From: Allgaiera indica
Lineage (GTDB): Bacteria; Pseudomonadota; Alphaproteobacteria; Rhodobacterales; Rhodobacteraceae
Assembly (NCBI RefSeq): GCF_900106675.1
Contig: NZ_FNOB01000025.1
Location: forward strand, 14,645-46,644
DNA: 32,000 nt
Direction of reading: 5' to 3'
A program made the position numbers and the translations under genes. The notes beneath the pieces are model-generated. The model searched no databases, was not told the DNA's origin, and saw only the letters and a list, made by a program, of their open reading frames with translations. Below are positions 14,927 to 16,685 of this stretch, in pieces (position 1 is the stretch's first letter; the number at the start of each line of letters is the position of its first letter).

Positions 14927-15576
14927 GCAGCTTCGTCTGGATGAAGGTGCTGGAATCGACGCCCGAGCGTTACGACCGCGGCATCGCGATGCTCAGCGGC
15001 GGCCGGATCGCACAGGTCTACGGGCGCATCGCCGCGATCGCCGCCGCGCCCGGGCGGCGGGTGCTCGACATCGGCTGCGGCACGGGCGCGGTCTCCTTCG
15101 CCTGCGCAGAGCGCGGGGCGCTGGTGACCGGCATCGACATCAATGCCGAAATGCTGGAGGTCGCGCGCGCCAAGCCGGTCCCCGAGGGCGGGACGATCGC
15201 CTTCCTTCAGCTTGCGGCGGCCGAGATCGAGGACCGTTTCGAGAAGACGAGCCTCGACGCCGTGGTGTCGTGCCTGGCGTTCTCCGAAATGTCGGAAGAG
15301 GAACAGGATTACGCCCTGGAAATCGCGCGTCGGCGGCTGGTGCCCGGGGGCGTGATCGTGATCGCGGACGAGGCCGCGCCGGCGACGCCCCTGGGTCGCC
15401 TGCTGCACCGCCTGCGCCGGCTTCCGGTGGTGCTGGCGACCTATCTGTTGACCCAGACAAGCACCCGGCCGGTGACGGGCCTGGCCGGGCGGATGCGGGC
15501 CGCGGGTTTTGTCGATGTTTCGCAAGAGCGGATGCTGTCGGACGCGTTCGTGATCGTACGGGGGACGCGGCCGTGA
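14923..15576 (+). CDS. Class I SAM-dependent methyltransferase
   Basis: 'RVLDIGCGTGAVSFACAERGALVTGIDINAEMLEVARAK' and 'LDAVVSCLAFSEM'. ATGA overlap with tetR. Confidence 0.88.
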   Translation: MSSFVWMKVLESTPERYDRGIAMLSGGRIAQVYGRIAAIAAAPGRRVLDIGCGTGAVSFACAERGALVTGIDINAEMLEVARAKPVPEGGTIAFLQLAAAEIEDRFEKTSLDAVVSCLAFSEMSEEEQDYALEIARRRLVPGGVIVIADEAAPATPLGRLLHRLRRLPVVLATYLLTQTSTRPVTGLAGRMRAAGFVDVSQERMLSDAFVIVRGTRP

Positions 15577-16685
15577 AGCTTTCCGATCTTCCGGGCTATC
15601 TGCGCGACACCGCCTTCCGCCTTCTGCCCCACCGGGCACGCACCGGGCTGTTCCCGATCGGCGATCCCGGCCCCGATGCGCCGGTCCTGGTGACCGGCAA
15701 TTTCACCCTGACGGTGCGCCGGCTGCGCGAGGCGCTTGCCGGCCAGGCCGCCTGGGTGCTTGTGGTGAATTCGAAAGGGTACAACGTGTGGTGCGCGGCG
15801 GGTGGCGGACACCTCACGCATCACGACGTGATCTCGGCGATGCGCGTGACGCATCTGGCCGACAAGGTCCGCCGTCGAGAGGTGATCCTGCCGCAGTTGG
15901 CCGCAACCGGGGTGGAACGCCGCGCGATCTCCGCCGCCACCGGGTTCGCCACCCGCTGGGGCCCGGCCAGGCTGGAGGATCTTCCGGCGTTCCTTGGGCG
16001 CGGATCGCGGGTGTTCAACGCCGAACGCTTCATGCGCTTCCCCGCCTGGGAGCGCCAGGAAATGGCGGCGATATGGTATGTCCCGGCGCTGATCGTCCTG
16101 GCGCCGGCGATCTGGCTGATGCTTGGCCCGGCGGCGGCGCTGGCTGCGGCCTTCGCCCTGGTCTCGATGGTCGCCGCGCTTTTCGCGATGCTGCCCCGGT
16201 TCAACCCGGTCGGGCCCAGGCGGCTGCCGATCCTGCTGGGCTTCGGTCTGGCCGGGGCGCTGGCCGGCTGGGGTTTGCTGGCCGCCATGGGCGACGCCAT
16301 GCCGTGGACGCTGGTCGTGGTCGGCGCGACCAACCTGATCGGCACGGGGCTTTTGTTCATGGATCTCGCGGGCACCACGCCATGGTACCCCAGCGTGATC
16401 AACACCGGCGCGAACCCTGCGACGATCACGCTGGATGAGGCGCGCTGCGACGGATCGGGCGATTGCGTGATGGTCTGCCCGCGACAGGTGCTGAAGATGA
16501 ACGGATCGCGGCGCAAGGTGGAAATCCGCGATCCCGGCCAGTGCATCCAATGTGGTGCCTGCATCGTGCAATGCCCAAGGGATGCCCTTCTGTTCCATTA
16601 TGCCGATGGCAGCACGGTCGAGGCGCCCACCATCCGCAACACCCGTCTGAACATGCTGGGCAAGCGCCGAGAGGTTCGCCGCTAG
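15573..16685 (+). CDS. HgcA-like corrinoid membrane protein fused to an HgcB-like 2[4Fe-4S] ferredoxin domain
   Basis: Cap-helix-like 'NSKGYNVWCAAGGGHLT' and 'REVILPQLAATGVERRAISAATGFATRWGPARLEDLPAFL'. About four TM segments, 'FMDLAGTTPWYPS', then 'CDGSGDCVMVCP' and 'CIQCGACIVQCP'. GTG start overlaps the methyltransferase stop (GTGA). Confidence 0.8.
   Translation: MKLSDLPGYLRDTAFRLLPHRARTGLFPIGDPGPDAPVLVTGNFTLTVRRLREALAGQAAWVLVVNSKGYNVWCAAGGGHLTHHDVISAMRVTHLADKVRRREVILPQLAATGVERRAISAATGFATRWGPARLEDLPAFLGRGSRVFNAERFMRFPAWERQEMAAIWYVPALIVLAPAIWLMLGPAAALAAAFALVSMVAALFAMLPRFNPVGPRRLPILLGFGLAGALAGWGLLAAMGDAMPWTLVVVGATNLIGTGLLFMDLAGTTPWYPSVINTGANPATITLDEARCDGSGDCVMVCPRQVLKMNGSRRKVEIRDPGQCIQCGACIVQCPRDALLFHYADGSTVEAPTIRNTRLNMLGKRREVRR

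Follow-up and report, generated by a model that had tools for sequence, protein, structure and literature searches.

The origin of methylmercury in oxygenated seawater is an old open question, and the only proven producers are anaerobic carriers of hgcAB. Ocean surveys now count the HgcAB-like genes of aerobes as hgcA, including a close relative of the gene described here (PMC12874090). This locus, part of a 32,000-nucleotide stretch of DNA (the window), raises the question of whether such a gene encodes a mercury methylase or a different corrinoid enzyme. Its host, Defluviimonas indica 20V17T, is a strictly aerobic, marine and culturable type strain. A sequence-only reading of the window had proposed that ORF 15573–16685 encodes an HgcA-HgcB-like fusion in a coupled operon with a methyltransferase and a TetR regulator.

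Identity and fold of the HgcAB-like protein

The operon, the palindrome upstream of it and the domains encoded by ORF 15573–16685 are as follows.

14280–14305, no strand assigned: perfect 12-2-12 palindrome, AATATGGGTGAC-GA-GTCACCCATATT, 9 nt 5′ of the tetR ATG
14315–14926, plus strand: tetR, 203-aa TetR-family regulator, first gene of the operon (Pfam)
14923–15576, plus strand: cpaM, 217-aa class I SAM-dependent methyltransferase (NF043040)
15573–16685, plus strand: hgcAB-like fusion gene, GTG start, 370 aa plus stop (NF043039)
15627–16022, plus strand: corrinoid-binding Rossmann-like domain, aa 19–150 (Pfam CdhD; Foldseek against CFeSP)
16044–16364, plus strand: four transmembrane helices, aa 158–264 (AlphaFold2 helices)
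16419–16607, plus strand: ferredoxin domain, aa 283–345, with seven cysteines (Fer4 family matches)
16623–16682, plus strand: clade-specific, Cys-free C-terminal tail, aa 351–370 (clade alignment)

The protein matched the NCBIfam model NF043039, “HgcAB-like fusion protein”, at 369.7 bits against an equivalog cutoff of 285 (E = 2e-110), with the match spanning aa 10–339 of the protein and positions 4–349 of the 350 in the profile. Both models for the mercury methylase itself failed, HgcA (NF040863) at 154.8 bits against an equivalog cutoff of 275, on which true HgcA representatives reach 300–422 bits, and HgcB (NF040864) at 54.5 bits against a cutoff of 99. Pfam CdhD (PF03599) matched aa 19–133 with E = 4.9e-13, a score that, like that of NF043039, is far beyond chance, and several Fer4 families matched aa 285–341, giving a single chain made of a corrinoid domain, the transmembrane helices of the AlphaFold2 model and a C-terminal ferredoxin. 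The model for the gamma subunit of acetyl-CoA decarbonylase/synthase (NF003195; cutoff 306) gave 57.4 bits, covering only profile positions 321–443 of 450. On these profile matches, the ORF is classed as an HgcAB-like fusion, a family with an existing NCBIfam entry, and as a sister to HgcAB rather than the mercury methylase itself; the sequence-only reading had likewise taken it for a fused relative.

That reading overrated the novelty of the locus. NCBIfam names both proteins, fused HgcAB has been known since 2015, and the ORF product has the same sequence as Defluviimonas sp. 20V17 U879_03690. The D. indica gene has already been cited in the mercury literature (PMC12874090), as has that of Breoghania (PMC10083202). 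The reading was nevertheless right that fused forms did not methylate mercury: 2/2 cultured fused-hgcAB organisms assayed made no methylmercury (PMC4646819, PMC5893877). These members of NF043039 share the architecture of the window protein but are anaerobes, unlike its host. New here are the CpaM linkage counts and fusions, the tetR palindrome, the seven-cysteine ferredoxin, the glycine in place of the cap lysine and the Cys-free tail.

The AlphaFold2 model of the protein (pLDDT 89, pTM 0.84) had as its best fold match in Foldseek the published HgcAB model 9a0b_A (E 1.4e-11), followed by the corrinoid domain of CFeSP (2h9a, 4c1n, 4djd), which superposed with an rmsd of about 2 Å over about 128 columns. 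Homology and fold together predict that the protein binds a cobamide. With the CFeSP large subunit (AcsC/CdhE) of the Wood-Ljungdahl pathway it has only this Rossmann-like corrinoid domain in common, lacking the TIM-barrel domain, the small subunit and the N-terminal [4Fe-4S] domain; CFeSP is not known to have a cysteine ligand to cobalt. Neither radical SAM (PF04055) nor PF02310 was found by Pfam search in the HgcAB-like protein or in CpaM. A decayed or non-functional relic was ruled out by the strong conservation, as 34 positions were invariant in the 31-sequence clade alignment although the sequences are only 30–69% identical.

Cap helix, membrane part and ferredoxin tail

The features that had been described from the sequence, namely GYNVWCAAGGG, the following VILPQLAATGV...WGPARLEDLPAFL, a hydrophobic block and the exit FMDLAGTTPW, were all present on translation. 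The cap segment reads N71-V-W-C74-A-A-G-G78, and the proposed cap cysteine is indeed Cys74, encoded by TGC at 15792–15794; it was invariant in the 31-sequence clade alignment and present in 100% of sequences in all five clades examined. G69, N71 and W73 were invariant along with C74 in the clade and cross-clade alignments, and R16, N43, L106-P107, G130-P131, F156, R161 and G267 are likewise conserved across all five clades, including true HgcA. At position 78 the whole window clade (100%) had Gly, and every true-HgcA representative (100%) had Lys. With NVWCAAGG, the window protein departs from the Hg-MATE cap motif N(V/I)WC(A/S)(A/G)GK, and the cap-helix motifs accepted in the Hg-MATE consensus protocol all end in GK (PMC10087281). 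HgcA and HgcB are two chains with an invariant cap lysine, whereas the window protein is one chain with glycine. The “NIWCSSLA” clade differs from the window clade by an N-terminal extension of about 150–200 aa, which the latter lacks.

The corrinoid domain is followed by long helices at aa 158–184, 186–205, 217–238 and 244–264 in the AlphaFold2 model, agreeing with the earlier estimate of about four transmembrane helices. Since this number is even, both soluble domains would lie on one side of the membrane. After the helices comes the conserved exit motif D264-x-x-G267-T-T-P270, of which G267 and P270, as well as R161, are invariant within the clade. HgcA has been reported to have five transmembrane helices (PMC11588087), in contrast to the four, followed by the ferredoxin, of the window protein.

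The seven cysteines of the ferredoxin domain form two motifs, C292-x5-C298-x3-C302-P and C324-x2-C327-x2-C330-x3-C334-P. Ser295 (codon 16455–16457) stands at the second Cys position of the first, and the canonical CxxCxxCxxxCP occurs once only in the domain (C324–C334). All seven Fe-S cysteines were invariant in the 31-sequence alignment, and position 295 was a residue other than Cys in 120/120 of the closest cluster representatives (Ala 94, Ser 17, Thr 3, Val 3, Lys 2, Arg 1). In SdhB/FrdB, C-x5-C-x3-CP binds a [3Fe-4S] cluster, and both these proteins and 7Fe ferredoxins have a small residue in place of the middle Cys of CxxCxxC. Because the pattern in the window protein equals that of SdhB/FrdB, its first cluster is predicted to be of the [3Fe-4S] type, here in a ferredoxin domain carried by a corrinoid protein, and the domain as a whole would hold one [3Fe-4S] and one [4Fe-4S] cluster. 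The two-cluster ferredoxin tail that had been proposed is therefore a ferredoxin tail, but with seven cysteines it is not of the standard two-[4Fe-4S] type. Both motifs are complete in the more distant fused members, against which the first motif of the window clade is one Cys short, and HgcB, with eight cluster cysteines, has also been reported to have two full cluster motifs (PMC11588087).

The window clade further differs from the distant fused members in ending with a conserved, Cys-free basic tail (R..RLNxLGxR), in which R355, G363 and R365 are invariant. This motif, R-x-x-R/K-L-N-L/M-x-G-x-R, was found in 119/120 close homologs, and only 2/120 had any cysteine in the tail. The window protein has no cysteine after C334, lacking equivalents of HgcB C73 and of the C-terminal pair C94/C95, which have been reported as crucial for methylation (PMC11588087).

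CpaM and the tetR palindrome

The gene upstream of the fusion encodes a match to NF043040, “corrinoid protein-associated methyltransferase CpaM”, at 273.4 bits against a cutoff of 180, with conserved SAM motif LDxGxGTG and D72. Stop and start codons overlap at both junctions, as ATGA (14923–14926) between tetR and cpaM and as GTGA (15573–15576) between cpaM and the GTG start of the fusion gene, in keeping with the coupled operon that had been proposed. Among related loci, cpaM immediately precedes the fusion gene in the same orientation in 58/60, and a tetR homolog of the window type lies upstream of cpaM in only 16 of the 51 loci with enough upstream sequence. The latter is an undercount, because divergent TetR genes of other types exist elsewhere, upstream in one locus (L080) and downstream in another (L101). 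CpaM is found with more distant clades too (L098, L101), and it occurs as a natural N-terminal fusion to the HgcAB-like protein in P0159, P0179, P0193, P0199, P0213 and P0226, and in P0211, which lacks the ferredoxin and falls slightly below both cutoffs. These fusions are scattered over several branches of the family tree. The model of P0199 (pLDDT 93.7, pTM 0.90) suggests a defined packing of all its domains. The one true-HgcA locus examined had ArsR/ars neighbours and no CpaM, in contrast to the dedicated methyltransferase partner of the window protein.

The folds nearest to CpaM were Coq5, RebM and the phospholipid N-methyltransferase 8ys9. CpaM was rejected as UbiE/MenG (TIGR01934, 53.3 bits against a cutoff of 158), and its GenBank name, “UbiE”, is a generic-domain annotation. 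It was also rejected as an ArsM-like metalloid methylase, since the As(III)-binding cysteines are not conserved and ArsM models gave at most 42 bits against cutoffs of at least 510; no conserved cysteine column was found among 66 CpaM sequences.

The tetR product matched TetR_N (8e-12) and TetR_C_24 (3.2e-9) in Pfam. The core of the palindrome upstream of its gene, ATGGGTGACnnGTCACCCAT, was found with at most three mismatches once each in 14/16 TetR-bearing related loci, always shortly 5′ of tetR and starting 28–87 nt ahead of its start codon, and at no other position in 728 kb of related loci. We infer that the palindrome at 14280–14305 is the TetR operator of the tetR-cpaM-hgcAB-like operon, a prediction from its conservation and placement. 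The divergent ArsR gene was rejected as the source of the palindrome binder, as the palindrome is kept in 13 loci with TetR and without ArsR. The window contained no cobalamin riboswitch or other RNA family (Rfam) and no B12 genes. Consensus scans found no promoter-like sites and a single terminator-like match, which lies within cpaM on the minus strand; shuffled sequences gave more.

No neighbour family other than CpaM and TetR recurred in 85 loci. The downstream metallophosphoesterase-DUF3419-methyltransferase-phosphonate transporter genes were rejected as parts of the system, as they do not recur beside the pair elsewhere, and the upstream neighbours in TetR-less loci were too heterogeneous to serve as substrate clues (CMD/AhpD-like, OMP, IclR, AMMECR1 and ABC proteins). 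The cassette occurs in over a thousand sequence clusters of aerobic organisms. A scan of genome contigs with the HgcAB-like protein returned one true relative, in a Defluviimonas MAG (L004), and otherwise unrelated ferredoxins, and a search of PLSDB gave no plasmid homologs at E ≤ 1e-20. Distribution is patchy, with transposase and integrase neighbours.

A proposed methyl-transfer relay and its alternatives

The view of the locus as an uncharacterised membrane corrinoid methyl-transfer system is supported by these results. The arrangement that we favour, with roughly even confidence, is a self-contained tetR-cpaM-hgcAB-like cassette for an inducible relay in which a methyl group passes from SAM through CpaM to a Cys-ligated cobalamin and on to an acceptor. 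TetR on the 26-bp palindrome would keep the three translationally coupled genes off until a small-molecule inducer is present. Two helical hairpins would anchor the protein to the membrane, the B12 and ferredoxin domains both being cytoplasmic according to the model, and electrons would reach cobalt from the ferredoxin tail with its predicted [3Fe-4S] and [4Fe-4S] clusters. Co(I) would then be methylated by SAM-bound CpaM, and this irreversible step could drive the unfavourable reduction of Co(II) to Co(I), much as methionine synthase is reactivated by SAM and flavodoxin; such coupling would permit a higher-potential, more oxygen-tolerant cluster. In MetH, methylation by SAM makes the reduction of Co(II) by a donor of modest potential favourable and so sustains B12 methyl transfer in aerobes. 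The likeness is a functional analogy only, with no sequence or fold relationship, as CpaM and the HgcAB-like protein have a class I Rossmann methyltransferase, a fused ferredoxin donor and a Cys rather than a His ligand. The Cys74 thiolate, as lower ligand, would stabilise methyl-Co(III), as shown for HgcA Cys93, from which a carbanion or radical methyl equivalent may pass, at the cytoplasmic face of the membrane, to an electrophile. For an apparently inducible, patchily distributed cassette of two genes, an acceptor that is a toxic or membrane-soluble small molecule would be a better fit than a housekeeping substrate.

This relay draws on what is known of HgcAB, with which the window protein shares the corrinoid domain, the N-V-W-C cap, the membrane anchor, the ferredoxin electron donor and, if the relay holds, a SAM-derived methyl group (PMC11588087). 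Purified HgcAB transfers methyl from SAM onto Co(I), giving Cys-thiolate-ligated methylcob(III)alamin, and a relay from SAM through cob(I)alamin to the substrate was proposed for it by Zheng et al. (PMC11588087). The same relay operates in TsrM-like class B methylases, which form no 5′-deoxyadenosyl radical, whereas the window protein has no radical SAM domain or CxxxCxxC, and its B12 domain is of the CFeSP type and not the MetH/B12-binding type (PF02310). In the relay proposed here, CpaM would methylate the corrinoid rather than the substrate or product. True HgcAB uses SAM without a separate methyltransferase (PMC11588087), and such a partner is therefore not chemically required. Three further points count against the relay: [3Fe-4S] clusters are weak electron donors for the Co(II)/Co(I) couple, most related loci lack TetR, and the window holds neither a cobalamin riboswitch nor a B12 gene.

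An alternative that we regard as unlikely is that SAM and CpaM serve only for repair, while the catalytic methyl group comes from another methylated donor via the corrinoid, in a demethylase or methyl shuttle; CpaM and the ferredoxin tail would then form, with the same small likelihood, a reductive-reactivation module like the MetH activation domain with flavodoxin. In aerobes, corrinoid methyltransferases such as MetH do lapse into the Co(II) state by oxidation, from which they need to be rescued by reductive methylation with SAM, the predicted [3Fe-4S] cluster fits occasional repair more than stoichiometric turnover, and tight coupling to CpaM is equally compatible with this role. However, no MT1/MT2-type methyltransferase (MtaA/MtaB, MeTr, CmuA-like) or other partner recurs in the 85 loci, so that any catalytic donor or acceptor enzyme would need a gene outside these neighbourhoods, and SAM is the catalytic donor in HgcAB (PMC11588087).

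Slightly less probable is a biosynthetic methylase for membrane lipids or quinones, in which the corrinoid would methylate a carbon beyond the reach of ordinary SAM enzymes. The active site in the AlphaFold2 model is anchored at the membrane face, and the solved folds nearest to CpaM include a quinone C-methylase, Coq5, and a phospholipid N-methyltransferase. In one locus (L098) the pair lies among genes for a B12-radical SAM enzyme that is most similar to hopanoid and lipid methylases, together with a MiaB-like radical SAM enzyme, a long-chain acyl-CoA ligase, ACP and a 1-acylglycerol-3-phosphate acyltransferase, and the next operon in the window appears to be one for lipid remodelling. This lipid context is nonetheless confined to that one distant locus, with no lipid gene recurring in the window's clade, and the similarity to Coq5 and PmtA (TM about 0.7, 18–25% identity) is that of the generic class I fold. 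The patchy distribution, transposase and integrase neighbours and TetR control resemble an accessory cassette more than a core pathway of lipid synthesis.

Very unlikely, in our judgement, is a genuine mercury methylase in a strict aerobe, in which Hg(II) would receive its methyl group from a Cys-ligated methylcobalamin that CpaM or SAM had loaded. The N-V-W-C cap-helix core and corrinoid fold are those of HgcA, SAM is the methyl donor of HgcAB (PMC11588087), and it was a 2026 ocean survey that scored the close relative of the D. indica gene as hgcA, suggesting aerobic methylation (PMC12874090). Against it stand the scores below both equivalog cutoffs, the glycine in place of Lys78 of true HgcA in a cap without the accepted GK ending, the tail without the HgcB cysteines, the two assayed organisms that made no methylmercury and the different neighbours of the true-HgcA locus. 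From its sequence, native mercury methylation by the HgcAB-like protein is unlikely. It is a long shot that the clade, with its seven-cysteine ferredoxin and obligatory methyltransferase partner, is an oxygen-adapted HgcAB machine passing a methyl carbanion or radical from Cys-ligated methylcobalamin to soft electrophiles, possibly including Hg(II) or other metal(loid)s, in strictly aerobic marine and soil bacteria; if it were, it would supply the missing enzymatic route to methylmercury or other methylated metals in oxic waters.

As improbable is a corrinoid reductive dehalogenase or halomethane-processing enzyme, for which the attack of Co(I) on halomethanes, a marine host in seawater where these compounds are common, and an inducible TetR cassette suited to a xenobiotic substrate could be cited. 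A 2026 preprint claims dechlorination of CCl4 and trihalomethanes by heterologous HgcAB (10.64898/2026.04.26.720869), but it has not undergone peer review and deals with true HgcAB of anaerobes; in an aerobe, Co(I) chemistry fed by a [3Fe-4S] cluster is energetically difficult unless coupled to SAM, and the obligatory, even fused, SAM methyltransferase partner is left without a role.

For surveys, the sequence evidence argues against scoring matches to HgcAB-like proteins of aerobes as mercury methylases, because the cap lysine and the HgcB thiols are missing, the ferredoxin type differs and there is an extra methyltransferase. The preferred relay from SAM through CpaM to the corrinoid would be the work of a compact, apparently inducible three-gene B12 system, and the culturable host makes both this relay and the claim that mercury is not methylated directly testable.

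The fused corrinoid protein and its assignment

The sequence-only reading had proposed that a regulator, a methyltransferase and a protein resembling a fusion of the mercury-methylation pair HgcA and HgcB (corrinoid domain, transmembrane domain and ferredoxin) form a coupled operon. The genes concerned are the following:

14315-14926 (+), tetR, TetR-type regulator
14923-15576 (+), cpaM, SAM methyltransferase
15573-16685 (+), hgcAB-like gene, GTG start, 370-aa product, cap cysteine codon TGC at 15792-15794

All protein segments quoted in that reading are present in the 370-aa translation. 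Pfam matched the CdhD/CFeSP corrinoid domain (PF03599) at aa 19-133 (E 4.9e-13) and several 4Fe-4S families at aa 285-341. Among NCBIfam models, the protein scored 369.7 bits on NF043039, "HgcAB-like fusion protein" (cutoff 285), and passed neither the HgcA model NF040863 (154.8 vs 275) nor the HgcB model NF040864 (54.5 vs 99). Proteins with NVWCAAGK and no ferredoxin scored higher on the HgcA model (337-422 bits) than on the fusion model (187-212), with the order reversed for fused proteins, so that the two models part HgcA from the fused forms cleanly. The ORF at 14923-15576 scored 273.4 bits on NF043040, "corrinoid protein-associated methyltransferase CpaM" (cutoff 180), and we consider the assignment of both proteins to these families close to certain.

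An AlphaFold2 model built with 31 homologs as input was confident (pLDDT 89, pTM 0.84) and consisted, in order, of a Rossmann-like N-domain, four long helices (aa 158-184, 186-205, 217-238 and 244-264) and a small ferredoxin fold, with a short tail at the end. The best Foldseek match in the PDB was the published HgcAB model 9a0b_A (E 1.4e-11, 31% identity, 284 columns), followed by the CFeSP corrinoid domain (2h9a, 4c1n, 4djd; rmsd ~2 Å over ~128 columns); by sequence, no experimentally solved chains matched except ferredoxins and the CFeSP corrinoid domain. Given four helices, we infer that both soluble domains would lie on one side of the membrane, and the arginine-rich loop between helices 2 and 3 (PRFNPVGPRRL) is consistent with a cytoplasmic location. 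The proposed three-part fusion is thus borne out by domains, modeled helices and fold matches, and the interpretation was essentially right: this is an HgcA-type relative, of a kind already known.

Neither protein is new. Both are curated in NCBIfam, fused HgcAB has been in print since 2015, and the gene of this organism has already been cited. What is added here is a count of the coupling to CpaM, natural fusions with it, a predicted TetR operator, a seven-cysteine ferredoxin and a cysteine-free tail. P. furiosus, which carries the fused protein, made no methylmercury (PMC4646819), and neither did a second carrier, Methanococcoides methylutens (PMC5893877), in agreement with the sequence-only reading. 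According to Lin et al., the fused forms make up a sister clade of HgcA, and one occurs in a single aerobic alphaproteobacterium, Breoghania (PMC10083202). The consensus hgc detection protocol accepts only cap motifs ending in GK and urges caution on fused forms (PMC10087281). A 2026 ocean survey reported "hgcA" close to that of Defluviimonas indica and speculated on aerobic methylation; Defluviimonas sp. 20V17 is described there as strictly aerobic (PMC12874090). Since the phrase "corrinoid protein-associated methyltransferase" was not found in the literature searched, the link to CpaM seems to exist only in NCBI curation.

The window protein is identical to Defluviimonas sp. 20V17 "hypothetical protein U879_03690". 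In the public annotations of P0001, P0277 and relatives, the corrinoid protein goes by "hypothetical protein" or "4Fe-4S dicluster domain-containing protein". JGI names the corrinoid protein "NAD-dependent dihydropyrimidine dehydrogenase PreA subunit" and GenBank names the methyltransferase UbiE; as UbiE/MenG, the latter scored 53 against a cutoff of 158. Both PreA and UbiE are misnomers at the level of the domain.

Clade-specific cap, ferredoxin and tail

A word-indexed search in which 8000 candidates were scored yielded at least 2243 clusters, formed at 90% identity, with E<=1e-5. The best 120 of these 2243 were all ~370 aa long and at least 56% identical to the window protein, and the few named members among them came from Stellaceae, Myxococcales and Gemmatimonadetes MAGs. 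When the 50%-identity representatives were searched exhaustively, 139 proteins reached E<=1e-30. A crude neighbor-joining tree of the HgcA-like part, midpoint-rooted and not a rigorous phylogeny, contained five groups:

Group A, the clade of the window protein
Group B, fused proteins in which both cluster motifs are canonical
Group C, true HgcA
Group D, proteins with an N-terminal extension of 150-200 aa and the cap NIWCSSLA
Group E, proteins with the cap NVWCAAG(V/A)

All five groups share the corrinoid core (R16, N43, G69, N71, W73, C74, L106-P107, G130-P131, F156, R161 and G267), which includes C74, the putative cobalt ligand expected to be conserved across orthologs. The residue following NVWCAAG was lysine in 100% of true HgcA representatives and glycine in 100% of clade A. 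The NIWCSSLA proteins (P0154, P0164, P0167, P0177, P0178 and others, ~450-500 aa; loci L096 and L103) carry an extension with no Pfam match, and L096, their sole locus with adequate upstream sequence, has no CpaM neighbor. Several of them, as well as some members of other distant clades, end in Cys-rich CxC tails reminiscent of HgcB.

In the ferredoxin of the window protein, the second cluster motif is canonical (C324-x2-C327-x2-C330-x3-C334-P) and the first reads C292-x5-C298-x3-C302-P, with Ser295 in place of the middle cysteine of CxxCxxC. The seven remaining cysteines are invariant in the clade alignment, and position 295 was non-cysteine in 120 of 120 close homologs (Ala 94, Ser 17, Thr 3, Val 3, Lys 2, Arg 1). 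The C-x5-C-x3-CP pattern of SdhB/FrdB binds a [3Fe-4S] cluster. Because clade A shares this pattern, and because the variable small side chain at position 295 argues against a substitute ligand, we predict one [3Fe-4S] and one [4Fe-4S] cluster. Two full cluster motifs are retained in distant fused members and are reported for HgcB (PMC11588087). The ferredoxin is followed by a tail, R355-x-x-(R/K)-L-N-(L/M)-x-G363-x-R365, found in 119 of the 120 homologs, only two of which have a cysteine there; in HgcB, by contrast, C73 and a C-terminal cysteine pair are reportedly crucial for methylation (PMC11588087). Neither the seven-cysteine ferredoxin nor the conserved tail was found described in the literature searched.

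Coupling to CpaM and a possible methyl relay

The stop of tetR overlaps the start of cpaM (ATGA, 14923-14926), and the stop of cpaM overlaps the GTG start of the hgcAB-like gene (GTGA, 15573-15576); the three genes are translationally coupled, as had been proposed. Gene neighborhoods were compared in 85 loci, of which 80 were metagenome loci from one scan and the others came from the window's contig, one MAG of Defluviimonas and three long contigs. Of the 60 loci with at least 700 nt of upstream sequence, 58 had CpaM directly upstream in the same orientation, and a window-type TetR homolog lay upstream of cpaM in 16 of the 51 with at least 1400 nt. All-against-all ORF clustering of the 85 loci revealed no other family in more than ~6. 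The conserved unit is therefore cpaM plus the hgcAB-like gene, with tetR as a frequent third gene. A different TetR type was found upstream in L080, and in L101, a clade-B locus, a TetR gene lies downstream of the pair.

The two proteins also occur as one chain. Six long representatives (P0159, P0179, P0193, P0199, P0213 and P0226) passed NF043040 in the N-terminal part and NF043039 in the C-terminal part, and P0211, which lacks the ferredoxin, has the same order just below the cutoffs (177.4 vs 180; 241 vs 285). In all seven, CpaM precedes the corrinoid domain and transmembrane helices. Since they are spread over different branches of the crude tree, the fusion probably arose more than once. 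With these fusions included, the genetic coupling of the hgcAB-like protein to a SAM methyltransferase looks obligate. P0211, P0214, P0221 and P0223 (536-602 aa) have ~240-300 aa before the corrinoid/membrane part and no ferredoxin.

The P0199 model (591 residues, pLDDT 93.7, pTM 0.90) points to a defined packing of the CpaM domain on the remainder of the chain. Its cap segment is helical and confident, while that of the window model is a low-confidence coil (pLDDT 62); the difference may reflect contact with CpaM or just a deeper alignment. The solved folds nearest to the CpaM domain were Coq5, RebM/AtmM and phosphatidylethanolamine N-methyltransferase, a generic class I similarity. Conserved among 66 CpaM sequences were the SAM motif LDxGxGTG, D72, S121-E122, D149-E150 and an N-terminal M..LE....RYD. 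No cysteine was conserved among them, and this speaks against a thiol-based metalloid site of the ArsM kind.

In purified HgcAB, Co(I) receives its methyl group from SAM and electrons come from HgcB; the product is methylcob(III)alamin whose lower ligand is a Cys thiolate (PMC11588087). In the fused system, the ferredoxin tail may reduce the cobalt and CpaM may provide the SAM site and methylate Co(I), after which Cys74-ligated methylcobalamin would methylate an electrophilic acceptor on the cytoplasmic side of the membrane. By the logic of methionine synthase reactivation, the irreversible methylation step would pull cobalt reduction, which would explain how a higher-potential, more oxygen-tolerant tail containing a [3Fe-4S] cluster could be enough in aerobes. 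We see the scheme as a whole as evenly poised between right and wrong.

Use of CpaM and SAM for repair only, with the catalytic methyl group coming from another donor, is chemically reasonable but unlikely, as no conserved partner methyltransferase stands beside the pair in the 85 loci. A lipid or quinone methylase, which the generic fold similarity of CpaM would allow, is quite improbable. It draws on one distant locus, L098 (1-11125; cap NVWCGAGV, motif CCECLACVKQC), in which the cpaM-hgcAB-like pair sits inside a co-directional cluster with pyruvate:ferredoxin oxidoreductase, a PLP enzyme, a B12-radical SAM enzyme (nearest HpnR and lipid "ladder" types), a MiaB-like radical SAM enzyme, a long-chain acyl-CoA ligase, an ACP and a 1-acylglycerol-3-phosphate acyltransferase; from its gene content, this looks like a lipid-modification cluster. 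Native mercury methylation is very unlikely given the failed HgcA and HgcB models, the lysine-to-glycine change in the cap, the missing HgcB thiols and the negative results for fused carriers. Least probable is a halomethane or dehalogenase role, borrowed from a 2026 preprint on true HgcAB, which leaves CpaM unexplained. Taken feature by feature, the differences from HgcA and HgcB argue that such genes should not count as hgcA in surveys of oxic waters, and because the host is a culturable strict aerobe, the question of function is directly testable.

Regulation and neighboring genes

A perfect 12-2-12 palindrome, AATATGGGTGAC-GA-GTCACCCATATT, lies at 14280-14305, 9 nt upstream of the tetR ATG. 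Its core, ATGGGTGACnnGTCACCCAT (up to 3 mismatches), had a single occurrence in each of 14 of the 16 loci with TetR, in every case shortly before tetR and beginning 28-87 nt ahead of the start codon, and was found nowhere else in the 728 kb of fetched sequence. The TetR proteins of these loci are 47-81% identical to that of the window. Given this placement, and since 13 of the 14 motif loci have no ArsR gene, the palindrome is best read as the predicted TetR operator of an autoregulated tetR-cpaM-hgcAB-like operon. A consensus scan detected neither a sigma-70 promoter nor a plus-strand terminator, and Rfam found no riboswitch in the window.

An ArsR/SmtB-family gene (13951-14298, -) is divergent from tetR and was found in no other related locus examined. 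ArsR regulators occur next to true hgcAB. In L102 (1-9143), the locus of a true HgcA with the cap NVWCAAGK that scored 421.8 bits on NF040863, the flanking genes are two ArsR-type regulators, two LMWPc arsenate-reductase-like genes, an SBF/ACR3-type transporter and a DsbD-like membrane protein; L102 has no CpaM, in contrast to the HgcAB-like loci. After the window's ArsR gene comes an SRPBCC-like gene (-) split over two frames (N-terminal piece 13775-13954, C-terminal piece 13608-13859). Because the sequence over 13608-14298 is identical in two assemblies from NCBI and in one assembled independently from reads, the gene calls of which are likewise split or shortened there, the frameshift is probably real or the gene a pseudogene.

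In L013 (9100-11190) and L015 (1-3809, 14659-15137), the cassette lies beside an IS91-type transposase and integrase or between IS21/Mu-type transposases, which suggests that it may move horizontally; no homolog was found among PLSDB plasmids. Downstream in the window, a 188-nt gap with an AT-rich stretch separates the hgcAB-like gene from a metallophosphoesterase, the first of a plus-strand series (16874-24000) with a DUF3419 protein, a class I methyltransferase and a phosphonate-type ABC transporter. These genes have no NCBIfam name and do not recur beside the cassette in other loci; we take them to resemble a phosphate-starvation lipid-remodeling set, plcP-btaA-btaB-like. The region 1-13342 encodes ordinary aerobic heterotroph metabolism, including an MprF-like lysyl-phosphatidylglycerol synthase domain protein (12-1946), an amide/urea-type ABC transporter with an AmiR/ANTAR regulator, a CN-hydrolase amidase and a formamidase (FmdA_AmdA, called gene ~12026-13342).
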